Positions 33,936-49,871 of a DNA stretch of 51,184 nucleotides are shown in pieces; the first letter of the stretch is position 1, and every line of letters starts with the position of its first letter. A program made the translations under genes and the position numbers. Under the pieces are notes generated by a model. It had not been told where the DNA came from, did no database searches, and saw only the letters and a list, made by a program, of their open reading frames with translations. This stretch comes from a virus (lineage: Duplodnaviria; Heunggongvirae; Uroviricota; Caudoviricetes), in IMG/VR virus record IMGVR_UViG_2585427745_000020; one strand, written 5' to 3'.

Positions 33936-33975
33936 TTAGCCATCAGCAGGACGCACTAACCACCATTGAAGGTGA

Positions 33976-34006: not shown

Positions 34007-34116
34007 AGCATTCAAAGCAGAAAGCTTTGAGTAGCGCGAAATGCAGCTGCAAGACAGCAACCGTGGAGATAAGCATCACGGCGCGTTACTCAAAGCTAAC
34101 TGACAGGAGAATCCAG

Positions 34117-34443: not shown

Positions 34444-34451
34444 GGTGATAT

Positions 34452-34703
34452 ATGGAGTTTCATGAAAGTGCGATTTATGATTTTCGCGCTAACGCAAATT
34501 CAGTAAAACCACAGCCAATTGCAGTTCTTTTTAAAACAATGGGTGCGTGGGCTGTTTTATGCTTCGCCGCTGATGACACTGACGCAAGAATGGCAATAGG
34601 CCAAGAGATGGAGATGGACCCGACAAACGATGAATTCATAATTTATGGCGCTCCATCTAATTACTTACTTGATACCTGCAACATTTACAACAAGGCTGCC
34701 TGA
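34452..34703 (+). CDS. Hypothetical protein after N (ral position)
   Basis: 83 aa; begins 9 nt after the N stop; no recognised motif. Confidence 0.5.
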   Translation: MEFHESAIYDFRANANSVKPQPIAVLFKTMGAWAVLCFAADDTDARMAIGQEMEMDPTNDEFIIYGAPSNYLLDTCNIYNKAA

Positions 34704-34839
34704 TGGTGGCCTTCATTTTTGGCATAAACAACAGAATAAATACTGCACTGTGTATTCATTCCAACGAGTGAATACACGGAGCAATGTCGCTCGTAACTAA
34801 ACAGGAGCCGACTTGTTCTGATTATTGGAAATCTTCTTT

Positions 34840-34866
34840 GCCCTCCAGTGTGAGGGCATTTTTTTG
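34840..34866 (+). terminator. Rho-independent terminator (tL1-like)
   Basis: Hairpin GCCCTC-CAGTGT-GAGGGC (34840-34857) followed by ATTTTTTT. Confidence 0.6.
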
Positions 34867-34877
34867 ATGGAGGATAT

Positions 34878-35846
34878 ATGAGTGAAGTAACAGATTTAGT
34901 TGTTATTGAAAAAGCAAATGCAATGACTGTATTTCAGTCTGCAGACCAGATTGAAGAAATCCTTCAAAAGGTTGAACGTGAAGTTATGTCCTTTGTGCCT
35001 GATATCACAACGGCAAAGGGCAGAAAGGAGATCGCTTCTCTGGCGTATAAAGTTGCGCAGACGAAAACATATCTCGACGGTCTTGGCAAAGACCTTGTTG
35101 CTGAACTGAAGGAAATTCCAAAGCTAATTGATGCCAACCGCAAGACAGTGCGCGATCGCCTTGATGAACTGAAAGCCAAGGCGCGCCAGCCTCTTACTGA
35201 TTATGAGGAGGAGCAGGCACGGATTAAAGCCGAAGAAGAAGCTAAGGCAGCAGCTGAAGCTCTCGCAAAGCAAATTGAGTCTGACCATGAAATAGCGATT
35301 TTGATGGATCGCGAATTTGACCGCCAAAGAGAAGAGGCAAGACTCAAAGCGGAGCAGGAAAAGCGAGAGCATGAAGAACGCTTAAAAAGAGAAGCTGAAG
35401 AGAAAGCCAGAGCAGAAGCCGAAGCAAAGGCAAAAGCCGAAATTGAAGCAGCAGCAAGGCGAGAAGCAGAAGCTAAGGCCGCAGCGGAACGTGCAGAGCG
35501 TGAACGCATTGAAGCCGAGCAACGAGCACAGCGCGAAGCAAAAGAGGCAGCAGAACGAGCTGAAAGAGAAAAGCAGGCGGCAATTGAAGCAGAACGCCGA
35601 AAAGCACAGGAGGAGGCTGAACGAATCCGGCGCGAGGCTGAAGCAAAAGAGCAAGCCAGAATAGCAGAAGAAAAAAGAATCAAGGAAGAAGAAGAGCGTA
35701 GAGCAAAGGATAAAGCTCACCGGAAAGAAGTAAATAACAAAATACTTGCTGACCTTATCAAGGTTGGTGCATCAGAAGATGTTGCTAAAAATATCATAAC
35801 AGCCATCGTAAAAGGCGAAGTATTCGCAACAAAAATAACCTACTAA
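34878..35846 (+). CDS. Charged coiled-coil protein with extreme Ala/Glu/Lys/Arg low-complexity core
   Basis: 322 aa; strong RBS GGAGGA (34869-34874); globular N-terminus (about 110 aa), about 170 aa of AEAKAKAEIEAAARREAEAKAAAERAERE-type repeats, short C-terminal domain. Confidence 0.6.
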   Translation: MSEVTDLVVIEKANAMTVFQSADQIEEILQKVEREVMSFVPDITTAKGRKEIASLAYKVAQTKTYLDGLGKDLVAELKEIPKLIDANRKTVRDRLDELKAKARQPLTDYEEEQARIKAEEEAKAAAEALAKQIESDHEIAILMDREFDRQREEARLKAEQEKREHEERLKREAEEKARAEAEAKAKAEIEAAARREAEAKAAAERAERERIEAEQRAQREAKEAAERAEREKQAAIEAERRKAQEEAERIRREAEAKEQARIAEEKRIKEEEERRAKDKAHRKEVNNKILADLIKVGASEDVAKNIITAIVKGEVFATKITY

Positions 35847-35870
35847 TAAAACCAACATAAGGAACCACCC

Positions 35871-36002
35871 ATGATTTACGCAATCGCGGGAGGCGCTCGC
35901 ATGGGTGCCTTCCAATTAAATGAATCTTTACTTGAACGAATCACCCGTAAATTACGTGACGGATGGAAAAGAGTTGAGGTCTTATTATGCGCAATGAAAT
36001 AG
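35871..36002 (+). CDS. cIII: CIII-like protease inhibitor
   Basis: 43 aa MIYAIAGGARMGAFQLNESLLERITRKLRDGWKRVEVLLCAMK; ESLLERITRKLRDGWKR matches lambda CIII; not in the ORF track. Confidence 0.75.
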   Translation: MIYAIAGGARMGAFQLNESLLERITRKLRDGWKRVEVLLCAMK

Positions 36003-36139
36003 CCATCAATCACCAGATGCTTCGTGCTGCACAGAACAAAGCAGTAATAGCCAGATTTATTGGTGATTCAAAAATGTGGCTTGAAGCAAATAAAGCGATG
36101 AAATCAGCTATCAATCTTCCGTGGTATCGCAGGAAATGA
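35987..36139 (+). CDS. kil: Kil-like host-killing protein
   Basis: 50 aa MRNEIAINHQMLRAAQNKAVIARFIGDSKMWLEANKAMKSAINLPWYRRK; IARFIGDSKMW resembles lambda Kil; overlaps cIII as in lambda. Confidence 0.55.
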   Translation: MRNEIAINHQMLRAAQNKAVIARFIGDSKMWLEANKAMKSAINLPWYRRK

Positions 36140-36294
36140 GTTTTACAGATAACTGGTCAGACGAAGAATTCATTCGTCAGATGAAAGATTTAATCGGTAA
36201 CGAAGGAGATATTCATGTCACTTGCAACCACAGTGAAGGAGAGCAAGTTACAGAGACGCATGTACACGCAGAAAGCTCTCTGGTATCGCCATAA
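36136..36294 (+). CDS. Hypothetical small protein upstream of erf
   Basis: 52 aa MSFTDNWSDEEFIRQMKDLIGNEGDIHVTCNHSEGEQ...; ATGA overlap with kil; speculative. Confidence 0.35.
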   Translation: MSFTDNWSDEEFIRQMKDLIGNEGDIHVTCNHSEGEQVTETHVHAESSLVSP

Positions 36295-36395
36295 TGGCGA
36301 CCGCGAAGGAATGCGGGTATGCCTTAATTTGTCCCGAGTAGAAGTATTAAATCAGCGTTATTTCCTTGGGCCATGTCCATTCTGAGAACAATCAT

Positions 36396-37001
36396 ATGAG
36401 CAAAGAATTTTACGCAAGACTGGCAGCTATTCAGGAGAATCTGAACGCGCCAAAGAATCAGTACAACTCATTCGGTAAATATAAATACAGAAGCTGCGAA
36501 GACATTCTTGAAGGCGTTAAGCCGTTACTGAATGGCCTGTTTTTATCAATCAGCGATGAAGTTGTGTTGATTGGTGATCGGTATTACGTGAAAGCCACGG
36601 CAACTATTACCGATGGCGAAAACAGTCATACGGCAACCGCCCTTGCACGAGAGGAAGAAAGCAAGAAAGGAATGGATTCTGCACAAGTTACGGGAGCCAC
36701 AAGCTCTTATGCACGCAAGTATTGCCTTAATGGTTTGTTCGGCATTGATGATGCGAAAGATGCAGATACCGACGAGCATAAACATCAGCAGAACGCAGCA
36801 GCAAAGCAATCAAAACCATCACCTACACCTGAACAGGTTCTAAAAGCATTCACTGACGCAGCATTGCAGAAAAACACCGTGGAAGAGCTTAAACAGGCGT
36901 TCGCCAAAGCGTGGAAGATGCTCGAAGGCACACCGGAGCAGCACAAAGCGCAGGACGTTTACAACATCAGACGAGACGAATTAGAAGGAGCGGCTGCTTA
37001 A
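36396..37001 (+). CDS. erf: Erf single-strand annealing recombinase
   Basis: 201 aa from MSKEFYARLAAIQENLNAPKNQYNSFGKYKYRSCEDILEGVKPLLNGLFLSI..., near-identical to the P22 Erf N-terminal domain. Confidence 0.9.
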   Translation: MSKEFYARLAAIQENLNAPKNQYNSFGKYKYRSCEDILEGVKPLLNGLFLSISDEVVLIGDRYYVKATATITDGENSHTATALAREEESKKGMDSAQVTGATSSYARKYCLNGLFGIDDAKDADTDEHKHQQNAAAKQSKPSPTPEQVLKAFTDAALQKNTVEELKQAFAKAWKMLEGTPEQHKAQDVYNIRRDELEGAAA

Positions 37002-37384
37002 TGGCACATTCGATTACTGTAAGACTAAACAAGCCCGCAAGAGAGTTTCAGGCCGGGGAAAATATCGGATTCAACATCCGTGCTGGCGTTCAGTATTACG
37101 ATCGCCAGACAAAAAAGAAAGAATGGACAAACTACAGCGCCGTTGTATTTGCCAAGCCGGGAGCGCAAGCGGATTACTACCGTAGTGTTCTTGTTGAAGG
37201 TGGCATTGTAGAAATTACCGGAGAAAACATCAGGGTTGATGTTTATCAGGGGCAAAATGGTCAATCAATCACTCTTGAATTACTGAATGCAAAGATTGGA
37301 TTTGCAACTTCAGGAAACAGCCAACAGCAACAAAGTAACAATCATCAAAATCATCCTGAATACGACGATTCAATTCCCTTCTAA
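37001..37384 (+). CDS. ssb: Phage single-stranded DNA-binding protein
   Basis: 127 aa; TAATG overlap with erf; Q-rich linker and acidic C-terminal tail ending DDSIPF as in SSB. Confidence 0.75.
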   Translation: MAHSITVRLNKPAREFQAGENIGFNIRAGVQYYDRQTKKKEWTNYSAVVFAKPGAQADYYRSVLVEGGIVEITGENIRVDVYQGQNGQSITLELLNAKIGFATSGNSQQQQSNNHQNHPEYDDSIPF

Positions 37385-37407
37385 ATTAGCAAAATAAGGA
37401 TTCCATT

Positions 37408-37701
37408 ATGCCAGCGCCTCTGTATGGTGCGGATGACCCGCGCCGCTGTTCCGGCAATTCCGTATCGGAGGTGCTGGATAAATTCAGGAAAAACTACGAC
37501 CGGGTAATGTCGCTACCACAGGAAACGAAAGAGGAAAAGGAATTTCGCAATTGTATATGGCTTGCAGAGAAAGAAGAACGAGAGCGAATTTACCAGACAT
37601 CAATCCGACCATTCCGCAAAGCCACATATACCCACTTCCCTGAAATTGACCCGCGCCTGCGTAATTACCGCTCACGCTATGGCGCTATCAGTAATGACTG
37701 A
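37408..37701 (+). CDS. Hypothetical early-left protein
   Basis: 97 aa; RBS AAGGA upstream; no recognised motif. Confidence 0.5.
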
Positions 37702-37711
37702 GGAATTTACC

Positions 37712-37876
37712 ATGAGAGGACTTGCATACAATCCCGGCATTCTTCCGGCAGAAATGATTATTCGCCAACGCGTAAAGCCAATGCCATCGAGAGAGGAATT
37801 ACTTAAGAGAAATTCTTTTCCATCAGTGAATCAAAACAAATATCTGAATGCGATGTTGCGGAGTGGGAAGAAATGA
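37712..37876 (+). CDS. Hypothetical small protein
   Basis: 54 aa from ATG 37712 with RBS GAGGAA; the upstream part of the track ORF overlaps the previous gene. Confidence 0.35.
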
Positions 37877-38379
37877 AACAAATGTCACTAATTGAGATGG
37901 ATGGATTTCTGAAAGGTAAATACATCCCACGAGATTTAAAGGTTAACGAAACAAACGCTGAATATCTTGTCCGTAAGTTCGGTGAACTTGAATCAAAACT
38001 AGAAACGGCGTTGCGGGAGTGTCGTTCTGCTGGAATCACGATTGATAACCTTGAGGCCAAGTGCGCGGCGCTGGCGGCGGAGAATGCGGGGCTGAAACAT
38101 GCAATGGCTGTAACTCTTGAGCATGTGTCGGTCACGGATGCAGGGCAGGCCGGAGTTGCTGCAATGATTATCAACGATGCTCTGCACCACAGCGAAACCC
38201 CAGCCACCGATGCTTTCCTGGCTGAAGTCCGGGCTAAGGCGTTTGATGACCTTTGCGCGGCGTTCGTTAAGCACGCGTCGGTGTCCGGGCTGGACGATGG
38301 CGACTGCGTTACGGTGAAAGAAGCGACGGACGCCCTGCTGCATTGTGCGGAGCAGCTTCGCAAAGGAGGCAACCAGTGA
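37873..38379 (+). CDS. Hypothetical early-left protein
   Basis: 168 aa; ATGA overlap with the upstream ORF. Confidence 0.5.
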
Positions 38380-39020
38380 GCAAGATTGATTATCAAAAGC
38401 TTCGTGAAATCGCTGAAAAAACAAAAATTGCTGGTGAAGCACCTGTAATGCCTTTCGATCAGCGAATTAATGCGCTTAACGATTTTATGAAGCACTTTTC
38501 GCCAGCTACCGTGCTGGCACTGCTGGATGAGCTGGAAAGAAACCAGCAATACATCAAACGCCGCGACCAGGAGAACGAGGATATTGCGCTAACGGTAGGG
38601 AGGCTTCGCGTTGAGCTGGAAGGCAAAGACAGCAAAATAGCCAATCTTACCGCCGAACGCGATGCTCTTCGTGAAGGTGAGATGGGCGACGCTAGGCATA
38701 GCAACACACGGGCCGCAGCTGATATCTACTTCCAACTGGTCGAGGAGTGCGAAATTCCTGCTGGCGGATCTCTGGTCGAGTACGTTGACGATATGCGCGA
38801 GAAGCTGGAAGCCGCAGAGAAGCGCATTGCAGAGTTAGAAAGTGGTTCTCAGGCACAAAAGTTAGTTGAAGCAATCATTGTTGCGATAGAAAACGAACAG
38901 GAAAGGCTTTTTGATGAAGATTACCTAATGGATTCGAAAGAATGCATTGACGTAATTCGTGAAGAAGTAAAGCGATGGAATGATTCCCGTGCCGCTGGCA
39001 TTCGCATCAAAGGAGAGTGA
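38376..39020 (+). CDS. Ea22/Ead-like early protein
   Basis: 214 aa from GTG 38376 with RBS AAGGAGG (38363-38369); N-terminus [15 protein letters not shown] resembles ead/Ea22-family proteins. Confidence 0.5.
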   Translation: MSKIDYQKLREIAEKTKIAGEAPVMPFDQRINALNDFMKHFSPATVLALLDELERNQQYIKRRDQENEDIALTVGRLRVELEGKDSKIANLTAERDALREGEMGDARHSNTRAAADIYFQLVEECEIPAGGSLVEYVDDMREKLEAAEKRIAELESGSQAQKLVEAIIVAIENEQERLFDEDYLMDSKECIDVIREEVKRWNDSRAAGIRIKGE

Positions 39021-39021
39021 T

Positions 39022-39939
39022 ATGACCACTATTACCAAAGAGCGACTGCTGACAATCAAGCAGTGGCGCGAAACATACGGACCTGATAGCAACGTTGTAC
39101 TGCCAGCAGAAGAAGCGGAAGAACTGGCACGAATTGCTCTGGCATCGCTGGAAGCAAAACCAATAGGTGCATTCCACATTGCAGAACAGCAAGTTGACGG
39201 CACAAGTGACTACCTCAAGGATGGAGAATGGCCTATTGATAATGGAATTATTGAGGTCTACGCCGCTCCCCCCGTTCCAGTAGTACCGGAAGAAAAACCA
39301 ATGCCTAATCCTCTTAGCATGTACGCGGTTGATGCTGTTGCCGCTATTGCAGAGGTGAGAGGCTGGAACGCCTGCCGCGCCGCCATGCTTCAGTCCGGAA
39401 ACTTTCGGGAAAACAAGAATTCGTCAACCAATAATTTTCGGGAAATCGCGGAAACGTCAACCAACTATCCGGTAATTCCTAGTGAGGTGTTGTCCGCAAT
39501 CCAGAAGGTTGCCAAGATTCGTGCCGATTTCGATGATTTTGACGGTGACAGGCGAGGTATCGGTGATTGTCTGGATGAGGCTGAGCAAGAGCTTATCGTT
39601 ACCATTAACAAATATGCCAGTCAGTTGGCAGCAGAACCTATAGCGCCTAATGACGTTCGAGAGCAGACAGCCATTCCGCAAGTTCCGGTAACTCCGGATG
39701 GTTGGATAAGCTGTAGTGAGCGAATGCCAGAAATGGGAGAGCGACAATGCTATGTGTTAGCAGCTGACTTTAAAAACAACTACCCACCAAACATCCCCTA
39801 CACTCAGGTCGGCGTATATGGCGACTGGTTTAATGATGGCAATCCAACTTGGGATGACGGTGATGGCGAAGACCTGTATCTCAAAGAGGTAACCCACTGG
39901 ATGCCTCTACCAGAACCGCCTCGATTAAAGGAGCTATAA
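39022..39939 (+). CDS. Hypothetical protein with DUF551-like C-terminal domain
   Basis: 305 aa from ATG 39022 with RBS AAGGAGAG; C-terminal W/D-rich domain ending ...VTHWMPLPEPP. Confidence 0.5.
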   Translation: MTTITKERLLTIKQWRETYGPDSNVVLPAEEAEELARIALASLEAKPIGAFHIAEQQVDGTSDYLKDGEWPIDNGIIEVYAAPPVPVVPEEKPMPNPLSMYAVDAVAAIAEVRGWNACRAAMLQSGNFRENKNSSTNNFREIAETSTNYPVIPSEVLSAIQKVAKIRADFDDFDGDRRGIGDCLDEAEQELIVTINKYASQLAAEPIAPNDVREQTAIPQVPVTPDGWISCSERMPEMGERQCYVLAADFKNNYPPNIPYTQVGVYGDWFNDGNPTWDDGDGEDLYLKEVTHWMPLPEPPRLKEL

Positions 39940-40053
39940 TAGTGAACTATTATATCTATTTGTATTAAAAGAGTTTTTATAAAATAAATCTTCCAAAGCA
40001 TGTAAAAACACTGTTAATCTTAACGTGTGTGAAACGTGAAGAGAGGTGTTGAA

Positions 40054-40335
40054 ATGAGCATTCATGATTTGTGTGAAGATCAAGAGCAATGGGCTATGCA
40101 GACCCTTATGGGATCAGGAGTTCTTGCAAGGTGCAGAATCCATAACGATGTAATTTTAGACAGCGGAAATGATGCTTCTTCTGCTTATAAATTAGGAACT
40201 TACCTATATCAAAAAGATAATAGCTGCAACTTATTCAATACTCTTACTGAAGCCCGCGACGCAATAAAGGATGCATATGAATCGTATTGTGGGATTGATG
40301 ATTGCCCACAATGCTCAAAATACATTGACGATTAA
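40054..40335 (+). CDS. Hypothetical Cys-containing small protein
   Basis: 93 aa from ATG 40054 (track ORF starts at GTG 40036); C-terminal CPQC motif. Confidence 0.45.
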   Translation: MSIHDLCEDQEQWAMQTLMGSGVLARCRIHNDVILDSGNDASSAYKLGTYLYQKDNSCNLFNTLTEARDAIKDAYESYCGIDDCPQCSKYIDD

Positions 40336-40423
40336 TAATATGAACAAGTAACTATCCTCGCATTCGCGGGGATTTCTTTTATCTGAACTCGCTACGGCGA
40401 GTTTTGTTTTATGGAGATGATAA

Positions 40424-40591
40424 ATGCACTTCCGAGTCACAGGTGAATGGAATGGAGAACCATTCAACAGAGTTATCGAAGCAGAGAACATCAACGACTG
40501 CTATGACCACTGGATGATATGGGCGCAGATAGCACATGCAGACGTAACCAATATTCGAATTGAAGAACTGAAAGAACACCAAGCCGCCTGA
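40424..40591 (+). CDS. Hypothetical small protein upstream of torI
   Basis: 55 aa MHFRVTGEWNGEPFNRVIEAENINDCYDHWMIWAQIAHADVTNIRIEELKEHQAA; not in the track; followed by a terminator. Confidence 0.4.
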   Translation: MHFRVTGEWNGEPFNRVIEAENINDCYDHWMIWAQIAHADVTNIRIEELKEHQAA

Positions 40592-40606
40592 TGGCGGTTT
40601 TTTATT
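40584..40606 (+). terminator. Rho-independent terminator
   Basis: Stem CCGCC / GGCGG with loop TGAT, followed by TTTTTTATT. Confidence 0.55.
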
Positions 40607-40613
40607 GCCTGAT

Positions 40614-40629
40614 TTGCAGGTTCGATTCC
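40614..40629. repeat. tRNA T-arm-like fragment (TTGCAGGTTCGATTCC), 16/16 identical to argW positions 1054-1069
   Basis: Exact 16-nt match to the argW variable-loop/T-arm segment that precedes the att core; the match stops where the att core would start. Confidence 0.5.
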
Positions 40630-40648: not shown

Positions 40649-40849
40649 ATGCAACACGAACTACAACCTGATTCACTGGTTGATTTGAAATTCATCATGG
40701 CTGATACTGGCTTTGGTAAAACCTTCATCTATGACCGGATTAAGTCCGGCGACCTGCCAAAAGCCAAAGTTATCCACGGACGCGCAAGATGGTTATATCG
40801 TGACCATTGTGAATTCAAAAATAAGCTCTTAAGCCGCGCCAATGGGTAA
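40649..40849 (+). CDS. torI: Excisionase / recombination directionality factor TorI
   Basis: 66 aa MQHELQPDSLVDLKFIMADTGFGKTFIYDRIKSGDLPKAKVIHGRARWLYRDHCEFKNKLLSRANG, recognised as KplE1 TorI; RBS GGAGA at 40636-40640. Confidence 0.85.
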   Translation: MQHELQPDSLVDLKFIMADTGFGKTFIYDRIKSGDLPKAKVIHGRARWLYRDHCEFKNKLLSRANG

Positions 40850-40922
40850 AATAGCGGGTAAAATATTTTTCACATCTAAAAAACACCATTCCAATCAATC
40901 CCCTGCCGCTTCAAGTAGATGT

Positions 40923-40938
40923 CTGCAGGGGACACTTT
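40923..40938. repeat. attR core of the argW prophage (CTGCAGGGGACACTTT; 13/16 identical to attL)
   Basis: Direct repeat of the argW 3' end downstream of torI; also serves as the left junction of the tandem satellite. Confidence 0.6.
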
Positions 40939-41121
40939 AAAGACCTTTCTCTACATTTCACTTCATTACATAACCACTTAAAAAAACAGTAAGTTATCAC
41001 CGAATCGGCCTGATTTTCATTTCAGTTAATTTCATGACATTACAACCTCGTGATGGTATAAGTGATGGTATTCCCCAGTTCGATATGCAGATACCATCAA
41101 TTTACCAAAATGAGTACAGAT

Positions 41122-42396
41122 ATGGCCATTAATGTGCTTTCCCCCAAACAGATAGAAAACGCCAAGCCGAAGACCAATGATTACAAACTTACCGATGGAG
41201 GGAGTTTGTATCTACTGGTACGAAAGACTGGTGGAAAATACTGGCGTATGAATTATCGTTTTGATGGAAAACAAGTGACATTAGCATTAGGGGTCTACCC
41301 AGATGTCTCACTTGCAACAGCGCGGAAACGGCGTGATGAAGCCAGGCAACTACTAGCCGATGGTCGTGATCCTCGCGAAGCAAAGAAACCCAAAAAGGAA
41401 GACCCAATTTCCCCCACGTTCGAGAGTGTTGCCAGAGAGTGGCATAGTGGAACGATGGGGCATCCTGAGTGGAAAGAGATCACCCGTAAAAAAATTCTCC
41501 GAGAAATGGAAAACCACCTCTTTCCTGCCATCGGTTCAAAGCCTATCGATACGCTCAAAACCCGTGACTTGATGCCGATGCTGGTTGAGATGACTGAGAA
41601 AGGAATTGGTGCCACAACGAGCCGTGTAAAAACCACTATGACGAGCATCTTCCGTTATGCCGTGCAACGTGGAATTGTCGATTACAACCCTGCCCACGAT
41701 CTAAAAGGTGCAATTACGGCCCCCAAAGTACGACATCGCCCCGCACTACCTCTCGAACGTTTACCTGAACTGTTAGCGAAAACGAGAAGTTACACGGGAA
41801 GACCATTGACTCGCCTAGCAGTTCTCTTTTCCCTGCACACTTTTGTGCGATCCAGCGAACTACGACATGCCAGATGGGAGGAGATCGACATTGAAAATGG
41901 GCTATGGACGATACCAGGACAACGTGAAGAGATCGCAGGGGTTAAATTCTCAGATCGGGGTGCAAAGATGGGGGCTGCTCATTATGTCCCGCTATCTAGT
42001 CAGGCTATCGGGGTACTGGAGGATATAAGGAAAATCAGTGGTGAATATCTGCTGGTTTTTCCCGGTGACAGCAACCCATATAAACCGATGAGCGAAAACA
42101 CAGTTAATAAAGCACTGCGAACGATGGGTTACGACACTCAAACTGATGTTTGCTTGCATGGGTTCAGGGCGATGGCCTGCTCTGCACTGACCGAATCAGG
42201 ACTCTGGTCACGCGATGCAGTTGAACGGCAGATGAGTCACCAAGAAAGAAACGAAGTGCGGGCAGCATATGTGCATCTTGCGCAGCACATGCAGGAACGC
42301 CGCAGAATGATGCAATGGTGGTCTAATTATCTGGAACTAAATAAGGACGAATTCCATGCTCCTTATGACTTATCAGGTATTAACATTATCAATTAA
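41122..42396 (+). CDS. Tyrosine integrase of the satellite (P4-type annotation family)
   Basis: ORF 41062-42396; by alignment with IntS the likely start is MAINVLSPKQIENAKPK (41122; 41110 also possible); about 424 aa. Confidence 0.85.
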   Translation: MAINVLSPKQIENAKPKTNDYKLTDGGSLYLLVRKTGGKYWRMNYRFDGKQVTLALGVYPDVSLATARKRRDEARQLLADGRDPREAKKPKKEDPISPTFESVAREWHSGTMGHPEWKEITRKKILREMENHLFPAIGSKPIDTLKTRDLMPMLVEMTEKGIGATTSRVKTTMTSIFRYAVQRGIVDYNPAHDLKGAITAPKVRHRPALPLERLPELLAKTRSYTGRPLTRLAVLFSLHTFVRSSELRHARWEEIDIENGLWTIPGQREEIAGVKFSDRGAKMGAAHYVPLSSQAIGVLEDIRKISGEYLLVFPGDSNPYKPMSENTVNKALRTMGYDTQTDVCLHGFRAMACSALTESGLWSRDAVERQMSHQERNEVRAAYVHLAQHMQERRRMMQWWSNYLELNKDEFHAPYDLSGINIIN

Positions 42397-42426: not shown

Positions 42427-43308
42427 ATGCAGCATTCAACAGAGAATGAAACTATATTCTTAGGAAATCTATGGATTGACAAAAAAATACCACCATTAGA
42501 ATATTGTTCATTTGAACGCGCTTCAAGACTATTAGAATGCGAGATTGATGATTTATTACATCTATACGAAATAGGCGCTTTTAATATCGCATTCAAGGCG
42601 GATGGACTTGCAGTTAGATTTAATGTTAATTTCCTCAATAAAAATCAGAAAATGGAAATTGACTTAATTCATCCCGTATTAACTAATCAATCACTAGAGA
42701 TGGAATTTTCAACAATATGGTATGACCTTAAAGATGATTCCTTTGAACATTTTGAAAATGGGCTTCAAATTATAGGATTTGCCTGTGGTATTTGGTACGC
42801 CGATGATATGATAAGTAACATAAAAAATGGATTAGCTATAGATCCAGATTATGAATTCAGGCTTAAACCGGTAAAAATACGAGATAATGTTTTGATGGCA
42901 ACGGCCTCATATGAAGGAAATAAGGTCATTGAGATTCCATTTGAAGATCTTCTTATCATGCGAAGAGATTTAGAGTTAATATGGAAATCAGTAAAAACTG
43001 GAATTCCTATGCCAAGTTTACTTACGAAAAGAATTTCATCTGAACCTAAAATCCCCAAGCGATTAAATAACACTGCTGAGCATCATGCAAAAAATAGGGA
43101 GGGGTTATTAAATGCAGCCATATATATATTAGCAAAATACCCAAGCGAATGTCGTGGTGAAAGAAAAGAGATAAGTCCTGAAAAGTGGACTAACGCCATA
43201 ATTAAACATTTAGGAGAGCTACCTCCAATATTTATCACTAATGAACAAGAAATCTTAAGAAAATTACGATTAGCGGTTAATCATGCGGGATTAAAACAAA
43301 AGGGGTAG
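42427..43308 (+). CDS. Hypothetical AT-rich cargo protein between integrase and AlpA-like gene
   Basis: 293 aa; RBS AGAGG; markedly lower GC than the flanking integrase and primase genes; no recognised motif. Confidence 0.55.
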   Translation: MQHSTENETIFLGNLWIDKKIPPLEYCSFERASRLLECEIDDLLHLYEIGAFNIAFKADGLAVRFNVNFLNKNQKMEIDLIHPVLTNQSLEMEFSTIWYDLKDDSFEHFENGLQIIGFACGIWYADDMISNIKNGLAIDPDYEFRLKPVKIRDNVLMATASYEGNKVIEIPFEDLLIMRRDLELIWKSVKTGIPMPSLLTKRISSEPKIPKRLNNTAEHHAKNREGLLNAAIYILAKYPSECRGERKEISPEKWTNAIIKHLGELPPIFITNEQEILRKLRLAVNHAGLKQKG

Positions 43309-43410
43309 ACTGAAACAATCTACAGGTAGAGTTGATTACACTACCTTCACAGCATTTTGATATCCCCATAGTATCTGCCGTGTTCATTACATAATACGGC
43401 AGGTAATTTC

Positions 43411-43626
43411 ATGACATTAAAAACTTATCCTATCACTGGACATGCCCGCCCACGAGCTACTGCTGACTTTTTGCAAATAAGTACGGTTACTCTCTGGCGC
43501 TGGGAAAAGAACAATCCTGAATTTCCCAAATCTATACGCATTTCAAAACGGGTATCTGTTTACGATGCACAAGAAATTAGGCAGTGGGTTAAAGCTCAAT
43601 CAGCAGGATTGGAGGAAGTAGTGTAA
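43411..43626 (+). CDS. AlpA/Vis-family DNA-binding protein (excisionase-like regulator)
   Basis: 71 aa; MerR-like winged-helix pattern (ADFLQISTVTLWRWEKNNPEFPKSIRISKRVSVYDAQEIRQWV). Confidence 0.7.
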   Translation: MTLKTYPITGHARPRATADFLQISTVTLWRWEKNNPEFPKSIRISKRVSVYDAQEIRQWVKAQSAGLEEVV

Positions 43627-43675
43627 TGACAATATTAACAAAGCTGGGGAGAAAAAAGCCTCCCCAACGTATTAA

Positions 43676-43870
43676 TCAATTCTTTGGTTCTAAACCTCGG
43701 CTTTGTAACTCTTTGCGTAGAATGCGCTTGATCCAAGCCGCTAGCGATTCATCGCCATCCTGCTGTTGTGCTTGTTCCATCAGTTCACGCAGTTCAGGGT
43801 CAAGTCGGAACTGGAATGGCGGATTCCCACGTCTTTCATTTTTGTGTGTTGACACGTCAATTACACCCAT
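43676..43870 (-). CDS. Ribbon-helix-helix (Arc/MetJ-type) regulator of the satellite
   Basis: 64 aa; PPFQFRLDPELRELMEQ beta-strand/helix motif; divergently transcribed from the downstream operon. Confidence 0.6.
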   Translation of the reverse strand: MGVIDVSTHKNERRGNPPFQFRLDPELRELMEQAQQQDGDESLAAWIKRILRKELQSRGLEPKN

Positions 43871-43884
43871 TGTAATGTATTTAT

Positions 43885-43903
43885 GTGTAATGACACATTA
43901 CAC
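43885..43903. promoter_or_regulatory. Palindromic operator candidate (GTGTAATG-ACA-CATTACAC)
   Basis: Perfect 8-bp inverted repeat with 3-bp spacer in the divergent promoter region, 15 bp upstream of the RHH start. Confidence 0.45.
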
Positions 43904-43986
43904 ACAGAAAAACAAAATAGCAACGCCCCGGAGTGTTTGCAGCAGCACCGAGGCGTCTGACCAGCACGTTATATGAGGTAACGAAG

Positions 43987-44163
43987 ATGGCTAAACAGAA
44001 GTGTACCTGGTTATTTGCGGCGATCAACCGCAGTCAACGCAATGCCCGTCCTGTGATGTTAAGGATCACCGCAGATAACGAACGATCAGCGCGGCGCAGA
44101 CTTGCCCCGGACTATGTACTGAGCTTTGCCGGGCGCATTCCCTGCGGAGGTGAACATGCGTAA
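43987..44163 (+). CDS. Hypothetical small basic protein
   Basis: 58 aa from ATG 43987 (MAKQKCTWLFAAINRSQRNARPVMLRITADNERSARRR...); track ORF begins at 43933. Confidence 0.35.
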   Translation: MAKQKCTWLFAAINRSQRNARPVMLRITADNERSARRRLAPDYVLSFAGRIPCGGEHA

Positions 44164-44515
44164 TTATCCGCACCCCGGCGAACGCTGGCAGCATGAACGT
44201 GGCTGGACGGTCACGATTATCCGATTAATAGAAGCCTCGCCCTCTGTGGCGCTGGTTAATCCTGAATTCAGCTGTGAAGTGCTGATACGTCATGACAGCG
44301 ACAACCAGCTTTCTTCCTGCCCTCTGGCATGGTTTGAACAGCGGTATACGCGCCTGTTTGATGTACCGCTCTTTAAGCCTGCACCAGCTCCTGCAGGCAG
44401 TAGTGGTTCCGGCCCGCTGACACTGCATCCGTCTGTGCTATTTATCCGCTGGCGGGAGCGTACCATACGGCGTTCTGCTGAGCCTGACGACGGTCACTAT
44501 TCAAAGTTTCTCTGA
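44156..44515 (+). CDS. Hypothetical protein
   Basis: 119 aa from ATG 44156 with RBS GGAGG (44146-44150). Confidence 0.5.
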   Translation: MRNYPHPGERWQHERGWTVTIIRLIEASPSVALVNPEFSCEVLIRHDSDNQLSSCPLAWFEQRYTRLFDVPLFKPAPAPAGSSGSGPLTLHPSVLFIRWRERTIRRSAEPDDGHYSKFL

Positions 44516-44546
44516 CAAAATACCGCTGAAAACGGAGTAATTCACG

Positions 44547-44831
44547 ATGAATATTTCAAACGGGCTCAACGGTGCTCAGGGCCACACTTTGCCTGAAAAA
44601 CACAATACCGGTGCTTTTGCCTATGGGTTGTCAGAGGACAGTTTCGGAAAGCTGACCCGCGCAAGAAATGCCTGCGACATGCTCCAGCTTCTCTTTTCTG
44701 AATACCCGTCTCAGGCCGGAGCACTGGACGCAGGCTGTGCGCCTGGTGTCGCCGCGCTGATGGAGTACCTGCTGGCAGATTTGACGGATATTGCACACAG
44801 CTGCGCACTGATTGAAGGAGGTGCCAGATGA
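44547..44831 (+). CDS. Hypothetical protein
   Basis: 94 aa; ATGA overlap with the next gene. Confidence 0.5.
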   Translation: MNISNGLNGAQGHTLPEKHNTGAFAYGLSEDSFGKLTRARNACDMLQLLFSEYPSQAGALDAGCAPGVAALMEYLLADLTDIAHSCALIEGGAR

Positions 44832-45211
44832 ACCAGCCGCAGGTTTCCATTTTCCCGGTAGAAATGACCACCGCGCTTTACCGGCGGGCTATTGCTTCAG
44901 CATGGCGGCAGAAAATGCTGAACGAAACTGGCAGTGATCAGTATGGTCCGCACAGCCTGACAGTGGAGCGTATTGAAATGGCCATTGCGCTGCATATCGA
45001 GTGCGTACTGATTAACGAGTACGGCGAAGTGCAGGGCGCCGCTGCCGCGCTGGCACTGCTGACTGACATGCTGGAGCCGTCACTGCTGACCGCGCCGCCG
45101 GTACTGACCGCGCGCGGCTGTGAAGTGATGGCGGAGATGTACCGCACGCTTCCGGCGGCCTTTGATGACTTCTGCAGTACCGGTGTGACGTTGTATGAGG
45201 GGGAAGTATGA
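44828..45211 (+). CDS. Hypothetical protein upstream of the primase
   Basis: 127 aa; coupled to the primase gene (ATGA overlap). Confidence 0.5.
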   Translation: MNQPQVSIFPVEMTTALYRRAIASAWRQKMLNETGSDQYGPHSLTVERIEMAIALHIECVLINEYGEVQGAAAALALLTDMLEPSLLTAPPVLTARGCEVMAEMYRTLPAAFDDFCSTGVTLYEGEV

Positions 45212-47880
45212 CAATACAGACGGTTACGCAGGTTTCAGCCGCCGCACGGGGGAAATGGCCCGTTATTCTGCAGATGCTGCGTATTGATGTACCTGAAAAC
45301 GGCAGGCACGGTCCCTGCCCGAAATGTGGGGGCAAGGATCGTTTTCGCCTTGATGACCTTGACGGGCGCGGGACGTGGATCTGCAGCCAGTGTGGCAATG
45401 GTGACGGTCTGGATCTGGTTAAGCTCGTAACCGGTTACAGCGTCAGAAAGGCTGCGCAGGAGGTGGCGCAGGTGCTTAATGTGCCGGATATGCAGGAACT
45501 GCCTGTTAAGCCTGCCAGACAAAAAGCCCCTAAACGCGACATGGGTCTTACCGTGGCGGCGCTGATGAAAGAGAGCCACACGGGAGAAAGCGCCTATCTG
45601 ACAGGAAAAGGGTTCGCCGGATACCCGGCCTCTCTGACCGGAAGCGTACAGCATATCAGCGGTAAGGATTTTCCTGCCGGTTCCCTGCTGTTACCACTCA
45701 CGACCAACACCGGAGCCGTGACCGGTGCACAGCTTATCGCCCCGACGGGTGAAAAAAGCATACTGCCCGGCAGCACGATGAAAGGCGCGTTTGTGTCGCT
45801 CAGCCCGTTACCGTCTGAACCACCGATACAGGTGGTGATTACCGAAGGTTACGCTACGGCGCTGACGGTAAGCCAGCTCACTGCCGGATGCGTAGTGGCT
45901 GCCATATCTGCGGGCAACCTGCCCAATGTGGCGCAGTCGCTGCGGGCACGCTGGCCTGAGGTAAAAATTATCATCGCCGGTGATAACGATTTTCAGGACG
46001 GGGGTGAGAATCCCGGCAGAGCCTTTGCTGAACGGGCGGCAAAAGCTGTTGGCGGCTGGATGACGCTGCCACCAGGAGAGATTAAGGCTGACTGGAATGA
46101 CTTTCATCGGGAGCACGGTATTACCCGTGCCCGTGAAGCCTTTCGCAACGGTCTGGTACTGTGCGGGGAAAGCCGCACGCAACTGCCGCACGGGTTCCGT
46201 CTTACCCAGGAATATCTCTGGTATGAAAAGCAGGTACAGCGCAACGGTGAGACGGAGATCCAGAACGTCAAAATATGCAGCCCGCTGCGCGTGACGGCAA
46301 TCACCTGCGATGCCGATGGCGGTAACTTCGGACGACTGCTGGAATGGGAAGATACGTGGGGTGAGTGTCGCCGCTGGGCGATGCCGATGGAAATGCTGAG
46401 CGGCAGTGGTGAGGAACTGCGCCGGGTACTGCTGGTTAACGGGCTGTCTTATATCAGCACCACCGGTGAGGCACGCGCACGCCTGATGGAATATATCTCA
46501 CTGTGTAAACCGGAACGCCGCGTGACCTGCGTCAGTCGTACTGGCTGGCATGGTCAGGTTTACGTCCTGCAGGATGAGGTCAGCGGTGAAGGTGCAGAGG
46601 GTGTCATTCTCCAGACCACTTCCGTGCAGGGGCGTGATTTCCGCGTGTCGGGCACAACAGAGGAATGGCGGGAGCATGTATCCCGCTACTGTACCGGCAA
46701 CTCCCGCGTGGCATTTGCTGTCAGCCTGGCCTTTGCTGCACCACTGTTACGGCTGGTTGGTATGGACGGCGGCGGCTACCACCTCAAAGGGGAATCGACA
46801 GACGGTAAGACCACCACCATGAAAGCAGCAACCTCCGTCTGCGGCGGGCCTGACTACTGGCAGACATGGCGGGCCACCGGCAACGCGCTGGAGGGATGCG
46901 CCAGCCGCCGCAACGATGCCGCCATGATGCTTGATGAGATCCGGGAAGTTGACGGACGCGAGGCAGGCAATATCGCCTACATGCTGGCAAACGGTCAGGG
47001 CAAGGGCCGTGCCGGTACGGACGGTGAGCTGCGTACCCGTAAGCAGTGGCGCCTGTTGTTCTTTTCAACTGGCGAGTTGTCTCTGACCGAACATGCGGCA
47101 AAGGCCGGTGAGCGTACTTTTGCCGGGATGGAAGTCAGGATGATCCAGATCCCCAGTGATTCCGGGAAGTTTGGCGTTTTTGAGGAGCTGCACGGCTTCG
47201 ACAGCGGCAAGGCTCTGGCAGAGCATCTTGAATGGGCCACGTCCTGCTACTACGGTTCGCCGTTCCGGGAGTGGCTGAAAGCACTGACCGCTGATCTTAA
47301 CGGACTAACGGCACAGGCAAAATCGCTGATGAAGGAATATGCTGCCGCCCTGACTCCGAAAGATGCAGGCAATCAGGTGGGCCGGGCTGTGAACCGCTTT
47401 GCACTGGTGGCGATGGCAGGTGAACTGGCAACCCGTCTGGGTATCACCGGCTGGCCTGAGGGTGAAGCACTGCGGGCAACCCGCGTCTGCCTGAACGCAT
47501 GGCTGAAAGATCGCGGGCACACCGCCAATCAGGAAGATATCGCCGCACTGGAGCAGGTTCGCAGTTTCTTTACCGCGAATCAGTACAGCCGCTTTGCAGA
47601 CTGGTATGACGAGCGCAACCGCCCCGGCAATATGGTGGGCTGGCGAAGGGTGGAGAAAGGCAGTACCGCGCAGGGCACGGAAGCTGTCACTACGTTCTAT
47701 GTCATGCCGTCCGGCTGGAAAGAAATCTGCAGGGGATTTGACCCGCGCAAGGTGGCGCGTCTGTGCGCAGATCGTGGATACCTGCTGCCCTCCACTGATG
47801 GCAAACTCCAGACAACCATTCGCCCGCCAGAGATGAATCCCCGCAGGCTCTATGTCTTCAACAGCGAGGTGCCGGGTTAA
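45208..47880 (+). CDS. Primase-helicase (P4 alpha-like: zinc ribbon, TOPRIM, D5-type NTPase)
   Basis: 890 aa; N-terminal CPKCGG...CSQCG zinc-binding motif; Walker A-like GESTDGKTT; typical satellite replicase architecture. Confidence 0.9.
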   Translation: MTIQTVTQVSAAARGKWPVILQMLRIDVPENGRHGPCPKCGGKDRFRLDDLDGRGTWICSQCGNGDGLDLVKLVTGYSVRKAAQEVAQVLNVPDMQELPVKPARQKAPKRDMGLTVAALMKESHTGESAYLTGKGFAGYPASLTGSVQHISGKDFPAGSLLLPLTTNTGAVTGAQLIAPTGEKSILPGSTMKGAFVSLSPLPSEPPIQVVITEGYATALTVSQLTAGCVVAAISAGNLPNVAQSLRARWPEVKIIIAGDNDFQDGGENPGRAFAERAAKAVGGWMTLPPGEIKADWNDFHREHGITRAREAFRNGLVLCGESRTQLPHGFRLTQEYLWYEKQVQRNGETEIQNVKICSPLRVTAITCDADGGNFGRLLEWEDTWGECRRWAMPMEMLSGSGEELRRVLLVNGLSYISTTGEARARLMEYISLCKPERRVTCVSRTGWHGQVYVLQDEVSGEGAEGVILQTTSVQGRDFRVSGTTEEWREHVSRYCTGNSRVAFAVSLAFAAPLLRLVGMDGGGYHLKGESTDGKTTTMKAATSVCGGPDYWQTWRATGNALEGCASRRNDAAMMLDEIREVDGREAGNIAYMLANGQGKGRAGTDGELRTRKQWRLLFFSTGELSLTEHAAKAGERTFAGMEVRMIQIPSDSGKFGVFEELHGFDSGKALAEHLEWATSCYYGSPFREWLKALTADLNGLTAQAKSLMKEYAAALTPKDAGNQVGRAVNRFALVAMAGELATRLGITGWPEGEALRATRVCLNAWLKDRGHTANQEDIAALEQVRSFFTANQYSRFADWYDERNRPGNMVGWRRVEKGSTAQGTEAVTTFYVMPSGWKEICRGFDPRKVARLCADRGYLLPSTDGKLQTTIRPPEMNPRRLYVFNSEVPG

Positions 47881-47914
47881 GGCTTTGCGTGAGTCTTATT
47901 TATTAAGGGTAACA

Positions 47915-48103
47915 GGTGAAACAGGTGGAACAACCGTATTTTACAAGGGCTGAACCTGTTTCACCTTCTGAAATAGTGAGGTGGAACAGATGTAACGCCA
48001 GCCAATCCGCTGTTCCACCTTGTTACCCGCGATGTTCCACCGGTGCAGTGTATATAAATACTTTATAAAACAAAGCAGTAACACATGTTTCACCTGTTCC
48101 ACC
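47915..48103. repeat. Iteron cluster (eight TGTTYCACC/GGTGRAACA octamers): ori/crr-like primase binding region
   Basis: Octamers at 47915, 47924, 47957, 47980, 48011, 48033, 48086, 48095 in both orientations, with an AT-rich block (48050-48075); resembles P4 ori/crr type I iterons. Confidence 0.65.
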
Positions 48104-48191
48104 GCATCAGGGACATAAAGCAGACTGAAACAGAGGGCATTTTTATCTGGCTGGCTTTCATAGCCACGTCTGAATAACCGCAAGCGCCCGT

Positions 48192-48209
48192 TGTGCCAGC
48201 CACCACACA
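48192..48209 (+). promoter_or_regulatory. Ogr/Delta-type late promoter dyad (TGT-N12-ACA)
   Basis: TGTGCCAGCCACCACACA about 73 nt upstream of the sid-like start codon. Confidence 0.5.
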
Positions 48210-48281
48210 CTGATCACCGATAGTGTGCTTGTGTCAGCCACGACACAATTGACGTAACGAACCAACCCGACAGGAGAAGTC

Positions 48282-49851: not shown

Positions 49852-49871
49852 TTAGAAAAAACGCCCACGTA

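Follow-up and report, generated by a model that had tools for sequence, protein, structure and literature searches.

A P22-like prophage and a P4-like satellite arranged head-to-tail in argW, with a predicted hybrid attachment site between them

The prophage and its flanks

Near the left end of the window (the whole stretch of DNA analyzed here, 51,184 nt) lies an intact argW gene, followed by a prophage with its integrase gene at one end and its excisionase gene at the other:

1009..1083, + strand: argW, tRNA-Arg(CCU), 75 nt, complete with encoded CCA (ARAGORN)
1069-1084, + strand: phage attL core CTGCAGGGGACACCAT, the last 15 nt of argW plus T (pattern search)
1085..1244, + strand: P′ arm of the phage, within attL (sequence identical to HK620 attP right of the core)
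1245..2402, + strand: IntS-type tyrosine integrase of the prophage (Pfam Arm-DNA-bind_3, Phage_int_M, Phage_integrase)
2403..40613, no strand assigned: body of a ~40-kb P22-like (Lederbergvirus) prophage (DNA identity of structural genes)
40614..40629, + strand: T-stem/T-loop segment of argW (TTGCAGGTTCGATTCC), present here as a second exact copy, with a terminator (40581-40600) on its left and torI on its right
40649..40849, + strand: torI, prophage excisionase (RDF), 66/66 aa identical to E. coli TorI (PDB 1Z4H)
40826..40922, + strand: P arm of the phage, within attR (no difference from HK620 attP or phage-only attR)
40923..40935, + strand: shared 13-bp core CTGCAGGGGACAC, the phage's displaced argW fragment and the left edge of satellite attL (pattern search, single-occupancy genomes, alignment)

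The prophage integrase shares 98% identity with HK620 Int, and its gene begins 160 bp downstream of an attL core that matches the KplE1 core at 16/16 positions. In the KplE1 paradigm, the P′ arm overlaps the intS promoter region (PMC2951348). The structural genes share 94-95% DNA identity with those of CUS-3, vB_EcoP-720R6, Kapi1, and phiv205-1, and by its sequence the prophage belongs to the P22-like Sf6/HK620/KplE1 type.

At the far end of the prophage, no gene intervenes between torI and attR, and the core follows torI at a distance of 73 bp. The torI product had no match in Pfam or NCBIfam at the thresholds used, and its identity therefore rests on PDB 1Z4H. The left limit of the P arm was set at the site of primer CTCTTAAGCCGCGCCAATGG (40826-40845), which bounds the 135-bp KplE1 attR that is active in vitro (PMC3509656). 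The TTGCAGGTTCGATTCC copy farther upstream is a conserved feature of the HK620/Sf6 module, beyond the limits of the minimal attR; it is annotated as a cII-activated promoter in HK620 and as an "attR core" in the CUS-3 record.

The satellite

Beyond the shared core, a second element runs to the end of the window on the same strand:

40936..41121, + strand: satellite P′ arm, starting TTTAAAG (identical to satellite-only attL in PD4)
41051-41059 (+), 41063-41071 (+), and 41091-41099 (-): candidate arm-type repeats TGATGGTAT in the satellite P′ arm (repeat search)
41122..42396, + strand: satellite tyrosine integrase, P4 type with arm-binding domain (Pfam; RefSeq annotation of homologous loci)
42427..51184, + strand: satellite body (Pfam)
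43411-43626, + strand: AlpA-like protein (Pfam)
44828-45211, + strand: DUF5375 protein (Pfam)
45208-47880, + strand: alpha primase (Pfam)
48282-49025, + strand: Sid-like protein (Pfam)
49022-49573, + strand: Psu (Pfam)
49570-49851, + strand: Delta (Pfam)
50336-51184, + strand: cargo ORF, ending on the last base of the window (ORF)

The Pfam matches of integrase, AlpA, alpha, Psu, and Delta all exceed curated cut-offs; the Sid-like protein (247 aa, about Sid-sized) has a Psu-family match of 37.7 bits, to its C-terminal half only. Among the ORFs scanned, which took in a subset of the small ORFs, none matched epsilon. The integrase start at 41122 is the RefSeq start at homologous loci, and an in-frame ATG is also present at 41113. 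The repeat TGATGGTAT occurs in five copies in the window against 0.63 expected, three of them in the satellite P′ arm, and two further copies are found in the satellite P arm of PD4; as arm-type sites they keep to the att arms of the satellite.

Satellite attR lies ~1.34 kb beyond the window, as judged from the intact array of Z1322HEC0003, where the core is found 1338 nt past the equivalent of the window end. The satellite in that genome has its own attR and measures 11.6 kb between att cores. Annotations of intact homologous satellites contain no capsid, tail, or packaging genes, and the gene content of the element in the window identifies it as a P4-like satellite. The satellite itself has no encoded CCA; in the array, the CCA at argW comes from the phage P′ arm.

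The junction between the two elements

The right end of the prophage consists of torI followed by CTGCAGGGGACACTTT at 40923-40938 (+), which directly abuts the satellite integrase arm. A pattern search of the window with this 16-mer returned one other match, CTGCAGGGGACACCAT at the argW 3′ end (1069-1084). An earlier note on this DNA had counted 13/16 matching positions in the core; against the 16-nt KplE1 core the match is 14/16, the first 13 contiguous, and against the last 15 nt of the tRNA itself it is 13/15. When three mismatches are tolerated, 0.41 matches are expected per shuffle. Both matches fall exactly on predicted att positions, and chance does not account for 13 nt of the tRNA end being repeated exactly, correctly placed and oriented.

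Genomes with a single element at argW delimit the junction further. Phage-only genomes match the window up to 40935 and then enter the dsdC flank, and the match with satellite-only genomes starts exactly at 40923. These two breakpoints leave the 13 bp CTGCAGGGGACAC as the sole overlap, with zero intervening host DNA, as the earlier note had claimed. From left to right, the middle site reads phage P arm, then CTGCAGGGGACAC, which every argW att site contains, then satellite P′ arm; it would double as phage attR and satellite attL. A table of att sites drew on the empty site, attP of HK620, attR of phage-only genomes, attL and attR of satellite-only genomes, and five arrays; in it, everything left of the junction is identical to HK620 attP and phage-only attR, and everything from TTT rightward is identical to satellite-only attL. 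At argW, each element also occurs without the other, and its half-sites are then exactly those of this window. In two-piece matches, some arrays show 330-450 bp extra, which was considered as an insert at the junction and rejected, as it lies within an additional phage ORF upstream of torI. No terminator-like site was found across 40849-41122.

The earlier note regarded the junction as degenerate. In its strongest form, this reading makes the junction a decayed relic, its mismatches mutations and the two elements fused into one composite that travels, or has ceased to travel, as a unit; the core does match the KplE1 core at 14/16 and not 16/16 positions, and some arrays hold IS1-riddled satellite remnants (ETEC1739). 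We regard such decay as highly improbable here. The 13-bp block is intact, and the satellite's own P′ arm accounts for the mismatches: its first bases put TT in place of CA, as they do in satellite-only lysogens. The tRNA-derived segment of the satellite ends with …ACAC, immediately before TTT, and the TTT flank is the same in the 72 E. coli genomes that carry the satellite alone at argW. Both sides of the junction are identical to single-occupancy sites, so that no junction base needs a mutation. The two integrases, torI, alpA, and the two arms are likewise preserved intact in this DNA.

The locus is very probably laid out as argW, the prophage from IntS to TorI, hybrid att, the satellite beginning with its Int, satellite attR (beyond the window), and host DNA. 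The full-length target tRNA gene stands at the upstream end, and both members come with an integrase gene of their own that shows the complete Pfam integrase architecture. The satellite's end fragment of the tDNA falls beyond the window and is seen in the homologous arrays of Z1322HEC0003, CFSAN064035, CUVET17-972, and ETEC1739; with satellite attR outside the window, the array is judged from these relatives to be probably complete in its source genome. The tandem with a hybrid middle att proposed in the earlier note is borne out by the single-occupancy breakpoints and the two integrases. That note had also allowed for a satellite att elsewhere, unrelated to argW; of 5426 complete E. coli genomes, 72 carry the satellite directly at argW, which makes argW its own att. 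The window is best described as a P22-like prophage and a P4-like satellite, head-to-tail in argW and joined by a clean hybrid att, a junction of the ordinary, well-known tandem-array type that is neither decayed nor unusual.

Order of arrival

Across the survey set of 5426 complete E. coli genomes, the same phage-satellite junction is present in 10, not all of them independent (at least 3-4 by satellite type, host flank, and phage variant). IntS-type phages occupy argW in ~1900 genomes, or ~35% of E. coli. The reverse order, argW-satellite-phage, was sought with a chimeric query of satellite attR and phage attL and found in 0/5426 genomes; the query was built on the PD4-type satellite P arm only, and reverse arrays with other arm types could escape it. 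Three partial matches to this query were discarded as an Ag43/YeeU island followed by a phage remnant.

The earlier note read the junction as evidence that the satellite arrived first. The junction itself is mute on this point, because phage insertion into satellite attL and satellite insertion into phage attR yield identical products, with no base differing at any of the three att sites. Circumstantial evidence from outside the junction tilts toward satellite-first as the more probable order. The order argW-phage-satellite holds in 10 arrays against 0 reversed, and the satellite's far argW fragment is altered in 8/10 arrays, which would make it a poorer target for a later phage. IntS-type phages are also far commoner than this satellite, so a phage is the likelier second arrival.

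It is possible, if somewhat doubtful, that a P22-like phage occupied argW first and that the satellite later entered phage attR (…gtagatgtCTGCAGGGGACACCATcctt), giving the same array. The products predicted by this route match the observed junction and satellite attR base for base; phage attR, in which 6 bp to the left of the G-run and all of the native right flank are retained, is close to native attB; and with ~35% of E. coli carrying an IntS-type phage at argW, many recipients are already phage-occupied. A second-arriving satellite could, however, equally use phage attL, which retains the full 21-nt identity with satellite attP, and this would give argW-satellite-phage, the order for which 0 genomes were found. 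Satellites, moreover, require a P2-type helper to move, and satellites are much rarer than these phages.

A one-nucleotide scar in displaced tRNA fragments

The alteration of the satellite's far argW fragment in relatives is mostly of one kind: one G is missing from the acceptor-stem G-run in 7/10, and there is one substitution in addition. The same loss is found beside phages in 118 of 1529 cases (~8%), much more rarely than beside satellites. We considered whether the 3-G attR could be a satellite-borne allele, with crossover in GGGACAC, and dropped the idea, as near-identical satellites sharing one P arm show 3G, 4G, and TGGG, and 118 phage attR sites have 3G.

A tentative alternative is that satellite integration deletes one G and spoils the far att, that later phages insert on the tRNA side, and that the 118 phage scars are the footprint of departed satellites. 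Should this be so, array order would record arrival order, the 10 present examples would greatly understate how often phage-satellite arrays at argW form and resolve, and satellite strand exchange would fall inside the shared core, left of the G-run. The 3-G form of attP was seen in 0/15 records of free phage genomes (~11 distinct phages), a sample too small to discriminate (P ~0.4 under the 8% frequency). None of the best-ranked of 939 empty argW-dsdC sites carried the 3-G scar; such sites may be rare or counter-selected.

Excision of prophage and satellite

The earlier note suggested that the junction may couple or hinder excision, an idea that is speculative. The two recombination systems in the window appear distinct. 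Phage Int and satellite Int are 30% identical, and the arm of each element is retained on that element's side of the junction. TorI and satellite AlpA could not be aligned and have no detectable similarity, which leaves excisionase cross-talk, also considered, without support. With its P22-like structural genes, the prophage is, as far as its sequence tells, not a P2-type helper, so adjacency reflects a shared attB and not helper-satellite pairing.

If strand exchange takes place inside the shared 13 bp, each element may still excise by its own integrase and RDF, and loss of either would restore the other's normal single-occupancy site. Excision of the phage is predicted to give the circle gtagatgtCTGCAGGGGACACCATttatcag and to leave a chromosome reading argW…CTGCAGGGGACACTTTaaag. 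For the satellite, the predicted circle is …TTCGATTCCTGCA(G)GGGACACTTTaaag, and the chromosome after its loss would read …gtagatgtCTGCA(G)GGGACACCA followed by the host flank. Excision of the pair as one unit is not expected from either integrase, because each outer site lacks the partner's arm.

These predictions would fail for the satellite if its Int made the exchange in the T-loop (TTCGATT). That segment is missing from the junction (GTAGATG at the equivalent place), and the satellite would be immobile until the phage excised. For four of four P-arm types, the block of identity with argW starts at the first T-loop base and the sequence farther left is unrelated; the T-loop is a recognized crossover subsite; and only phage-second events could then build phage-satellite arrays, in keeping with the 10:0 order. 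We nonetheless think a locked satellite unlikely. The IntS 16-nt block excludes the T-loop, and the 118 phage attR sites with a satellite-type 1-nt scar are explained most simply if satellites exit by exchange within the shared core. Williams, in 2002, reportedly put P4-type integrases, IntS included, in an asymmetric 3′-end (T/acceptor junction) subsite class. Islander lumps the T-loop and junction subsites together as hard to distinguish.

A search of viral contigs for the excised satellite attP (P arm, core, and P′ arm) gave 0 matches. Metagenome contigs gave seven, six of which are ordinary attL at argW; the seventh (L025) was rejected as attP, being a resolvase-bearing island followed by the satellite, i.e., another tandem array.

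Implications

The value of these observations is mainly one of housekeeping, and current understanding is not overturned: tandem arrays are routinely met at tRNA genes. For element callers and the drawing of boundaries at argW, the 50-kb block should be divided in two at 40923-40935, and the T-arm copy at 40614 should not be taken for an att core, as it is in the CUS-3 record. The array may also prove useful as a natural substrate. For example, it could be asked whether a hybrid att with native arm and core and a foreign outer flank supports IntS/TorI excision, where the satellite integrase exchanges strands, and whether the 1-nt damage of displaced tRNA fragments is made at integration.

Comparison with known systems

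The prophage shares with the KplE1 (CPS-53)/HK620/Sf6 module the placement of int at attL and torI at attR, an identical TorI, and the same attR P arm. Excision in that module is by IntS and TorI together with IHF. The module's 16-nt core is duplicated, whereas here attL matches at 16/16 and attR at 14/16 positions; the satellite arm (TTTAAAG…) stands where attR would have its host side (B′, CATCCTT…), and the native right flank is absent. Because the attR shortfall stems from this replacement, the phage is still a member of the module. The prophage here is full length, whereas KplE1 is a 10-kb remnant.

The satellite shares with P4-like satellites (PMC8628076) the integrase, AlpA, the alpha primase (Zn-ribbon, Toprim, DUF927), Psu, Ogr/Delta, a Sid-sized Psu-like protein, a size of ~11.6 kb, and integration at a tRNA gene. 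Its genes run int-alpA-…-alpha-sid-psu-delta on a single strand and the cargo lies between delta and attR, whereas in P4 int and alpha flank att. Also unlike P4, no epsilon homologue was identified among the ORFs scanned, a DUF5375 protein precedes alpha, and Delta is short (93 aa). P4-like elements adjoining large prophages were noted by Moura de Sousa and Rocha in 2021 (PMC8628076); in the literature searched, we found no description of an HK620/Sf6-type prophage paired with a P4-like satellite at argW.

The "damaged" displaced tDNA of satellite-type islands has been ascribed to a deletion 3 bp upstream of the discriminator (Williams 2003, as relayed in PMC4383910), and the one-G loss in relatives is compatible with that reported deletion. 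Here, ~8% of phage-adjacent fragments are damaged, against none beside prophages in Tommasini et al. 2023 (PMC10111431).

Finally, tandems in which every member contributes an integrase and a tDNA fragment form a standard category in Islander, which counts 125 of them. Islander/TIGER tandem arrays at a single tRNA gene have, as here, the intact tDNA at one end and two co-oriented elements, and from these the array at argW shows no essential difference.

Architecture of the argW array

The window carries a single tRNA gene, argW, and the elements arranged downstream of it are defined by the following features.

1009-1083: argW, tRNA-Arg, anticodon CCU, with an encoded CCA
1069-1084: attL core, CTGCAGGGGACACCAT, the final 15 nt of argW plus the following T
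1245-2402: prophage integrase, directly 3' of argW, 98% identical to the HK620 integrase
40614-40629: 16-nt exact copy of the argW T-stem/T-loop (TTGCAGGTTCGATTCC; compare 1054-1069), between a terminator at 40581-40600 and the torI start
40649-40849: torI, the final phage gene, its product identical in 66/66 residues to E. coli TorI (PDB 1Z4H)
40923-40938: second core, CTGCAGGGGACACTTT, on the same strand
41122-42396: satellite integrase, 424 aa, past the second core

The prophage integrase shows the domain set of a P4-type tyrosine recombinase (arm-binding, central, catalytic) and is followed by ~38 kb of P22-like phage genes, with a structural region 94-95% identical to CUS-3, Kapi1, phiv205-1 and similar Lederbergvirus phages. 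CTGCAGGGGACACCAT is the published 16-nt core of the KplE1/CPS-53 prophage (PMC2951348), and its sole other match in 51 kb, with up to three mismatches allowed, is the site at 40923-40938. There, 14 of 16 positions agree with the KplE1 core—the first 13 contiguously—and two differ; an earlier note on this DNA had counted 13 of 16, a small slip.

Beyond its integrase, the satellite encodes an AlpA-family protein, a DUF5375 protein, Psu, a short Ogr/Delta zinc finger protein, an 890-aa primase with zinc ribbon, Toprim and DUF927 domains, and a 247-aa protein of about the size of Sid with a partial Psu-family match; no epsilon homologue was identified in it. By the definition of Moura de Sousa and Rocha (PMC8628076), this gene set marks a P4-like satellite; its gene order is unlike that of P4. 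The stop codon of a cargo ORF forms the window's final three bases. In Z1322HEC0003, an array strain with an intact satellite and the same cargo genes, the satellite attR core lies 1338 nt past the position that corresponds to the end of the window; by this comparison, the window appears to end before the satellite's right end. Between delta and attR, cargo ORFs vary by strain (window 50336-51184 and beyond; PD4, L001, 18414-19983; CUVET17-972, L009, 23552-24595; CFSAN064035, L017, 24552-25748): 849 bp plus 705 bp in the window, PD4 and Z1322HEC0003, 1044 bp in CUVET17-972 and 1197 bp in CFSAN064035. This variable slot sits elsewhere than the P4 hotspot.

A hybrid att site without host DNA

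Comparison with 5426 complete E. coli genomes allowed each half of the junction to be assigned. In the many satellite-only genomes, similarity to the window begins exactly at 40923; PD4, for instance, is laid out yfdC - argW - satellite - dsdC, and its left junction, ...ggttcgattcCTGCAGGGGACACtttaaagacc..., agrees with the window at every base starting with the C of CTGCAGG. Phage-only genomes match the window through 40935, the last C of GACAC; from there they run CATccttgtg... into the dsdC flank, just as unoccupied genomes do after argW. The HK620 attP reads ...caagtagatgtCTGCAGGGGACACcatttatcag..., and a five-way alignment places the left side of the window junction with this attP and the phage-only attR, and its right side with the satellite-only attL. 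The two halves overlap by 13 bp, CTGCAGGGGACAC, leaving zero bases for host DNA and bearing out the earlier note's proposal that the elements abut directly.

Every base of the junction is explained in this alignment without mutation. The two mismatched bases (TT for CA) open the satellite's own right-hand arm, and the site, which the note called degenerate, is instead a hybrid att and intact. The note's structural interpretation otherwise holds: judged against phage-only and satellite-only genomes, the middle site is a textbook hybrid of phage P arm, common core and satellite P' arm. Nor does the satellite's true att lie elsewhere, unrelated to argW, for the satellite directly adjoins argW in 72 genomes. 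The attB of argW itself exists with two right flanks, dsdC (CCATccttg) or csc (CCAgataccc), and a csc sucrose-utilization cluster (cscB, cscK, cscA) replaces dsdC downstream of the satellite in several array strains (L009, L016, L017).

The arms of the hybrid site appear complete on both sides. The 135-bp attR active in KplE1 excision in vitro begins at the primer site CTCTTAAGCCGCGCCAATGG (PMC3509656). That site corresponds to window 40826-40845, and the phage P arm of attR is wholly present; relative to the KplE1 fragment, satellite DNA takes the place of just ~27 bp of host sequence on the core's right side. On the satellite side, TGATGGTAT occurs three times in the arm at 40936-41121, shortly before the integrase start, twice direct and once inverted, and two further copies lie in the other arm of the PD4 satellite, 60-80 bp from the core. 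The window holds five copies where 0.63 would be expected, and the PD4 locus six where 0.25 would be. The repeats make good candidate arm-type sites for the integrase, and their presence indicates an intact satellite attL arm.

Consequences for argW

The satellite's copy of the tRNA end halts at ...GGGGACAC, without a full CCA, and argW is therefore called at 72-73 nt in satellite-only lysogens, versus 75. Beside the satellite alone (PD4, 8941-9016, versus window 1009-1084), argW reads ...GGGGACACTTT with no encoded CCA, a state found in at least 72 E. coli genomes. In the array, argW lies beside the phage and reads ...GACACCAT. The CCAT comes from the phage arm, so the phage gives argW back the encoded CCA that is missing beside the satellite alone.

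Order of arrival

The earlier note took the junction as what is expected had the satellite occupied argW first. The expectation is correct but not diagnostic: when the observed half-sites are written out, phage integration into a satellite attL and satellite integration into a phage attR yield identical sequence at all three att sites, the satellite attR of array strains included, and the junction therefore keeps no record of order. Arrival of the phage first, which would leave these same sites, is nonetheless the rather doubtful course. Since all 21 nt of identity with the satellite attP persist in the phage attL, a second-arriving satellite should sometimes use it, giving the reverse order. 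All ten arrays are ordered argW-phage-satellite, and a search for the reverse junction, with satellite attR joined to phage attL in one query, found 0 genomes, using the PD4-type satellite arm only; that arm is also borne by Z1322HEC0003, whose satellite is the array-strain satellite that best matches the window's. Two further considerations lean toward the satellite having come first. The satellite's far argW fragment, usually altered, offers a reason for a later phage to choose the tRNA-proximal site, and IntS-type phages, which occupy argW in ~1900 genomes, move much more readily than a satellite that depends on a helper. We consider arrival of the satellite first the probable order. As the neighboring phage is P22-like, it is not of the satellite's helper type, and the adjacency reflects competition for one attB.

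Damage to the far argW fragment

The fragment at the satellite's far end was compared in ten satellites: one G is lost from GGGG in seven, the first G is replaced by T in one, and two are intact.

Positions of attR sites in comparison loci
L001 (PD4): satellite attR, 20601
L009 (CUVET17-972): satellite attR, 26056
L011: satellite attR, 322
L012: satellite attR, 5614
L016: satellite attR, 12748, reverse strand
L017 (CFSAN064035): satellite attR, 26279
L026-L029: satellite attR
L018: phage attR, 3001

A fixed satellite allele is ruled out as the source of the G loss, as satellites sharing one P arm show all three states (PD4 3G, NCTC11023 4G, MB64 T). Such tDNA damage has been reported with satellite-type islands rather than prophages (PMC10111431); here it is likewise found at argW satellites, but beside prophages too. 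The one-G loss occurs beside IntS-type phages in 118 genomes versus ~1411 without it (7.7% of ~1529), a much lower frequency than at satellites (Fisher p = 6e-8, ignoring phylogenetic non-independence). One tentative reading, which we would not favor, takes the 118 scarred phage sites for footprints left by satellites that have since gone. The 3-G form was found in 0 of ~11 distinct free phage attP sites, a sample too small to inform; the deletion is absent from the best-ranked of 939 empty argW-dsdC sites, and viral and metagenome contigs yielded no excised satellite attP.

Crossover and excision

Satellite and argW share an identity block from the first T-loop base to ...GACAC (TTCGATTCCTGCAGGGGACAC), further left of which all four P-arm types are unrelated to argW; IntS-type phages have just CTGCAGGGGACACCAT in common with it. 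Islander distinguishes crossover subsites in the anticodon loop, the T-loop and the T/acceptor stem junction, the last two being hard to separate (PMC4383910). Were both enzymes to exchange strands near CTGCAGG, at the T/acceptor junction, all three sites would hold an intact exchange segment and each element should leave independently, phage loss giving a satellite-only attL and satellite loss a normal phage attR. Exchange by the satellite in the T-loop, within the identity block, would lock it in place until the phage leaves, because the junction has GTAGATG where such exchange needs TTCGATT; we regard this as unlikely. Excision of phage and satellite as a single unit, by either enzyme, is also unlikely because the outer sites lack the partner arm. 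The two integrases are 30% identical, and TorI and the satellite AlpA have no detectable similarity. No terminator-like site was found between torI and the satellite integrase gene, so transcriptional read-through from one to the other is possible, though speculative.

A second argW copy beside torI

Taken together, the T-arm copy at 40614 and the core at 40923 spell the final 31 nt of argW, with a torI cassette of 293 bp in between. The copy is conserved in HK620 and Sf6 too, and the HK620 record annotates its location as a cII-activated integration promoter. The CUS-3 record (CP000711.1; L002 1714-1729, L015 1-16) names it 'attL core'/'attR core' and ends the prophage there, thereby omitting torI and the real core. 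Because that record's left end goes on ...tgcaggggacaccatttatcag and then into an IntS-type integrase, the sequence indicates that the true CUS-3 att is the 16-nt KplE1 core, ~294 bp further on.

Prevalence and relation to known arrangements

The torI-to-satellite-integrase junction is present in 10 of the 5426 genomes. Some arrays match in two pieces; the extra 330-450 bp are an added phage ORF upstream of torI, which rules out extra sequence at the junction itself. The arrays are not uniform: two integrase alleles and three different P arms occur among their satellites, the host flank is either dsdC or the csc sucrose genes, and the phage variant differs. The state of the satellite ranges from an intact 11.6 kb in Z1322HEC0003 to 3.9 kb in ETEC1739, a remnant that holds two copies of IS1. 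At least three to four of the arrays therefore look independent.

Other arrays also occupy argW. G749 (L008) and ST131 strains carry the same phage type and after it an island that encodes a 391-aa integrase and has sce7725/sce7726 genes, its arm similar to that of the satellite over ~40 nt; S1-NGR-02-A (L010) has an Ag43/YeeU island, then an intS phage remnant; and a metagenome contig (L025) has a resolvase-bearing island, then this satellite. More broadly, Islander lists 3919 islands and counts 125 tandems among them (PMC4383910), the literature regularly describes tandem prophages and integrative elements at tRNA loci of E. coli (PMC9997748), and a survey of P4-like elements describes them beside large prophages (PMC8628076). 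The array is a new example of this well-known arrangement, present in ten public genomes.
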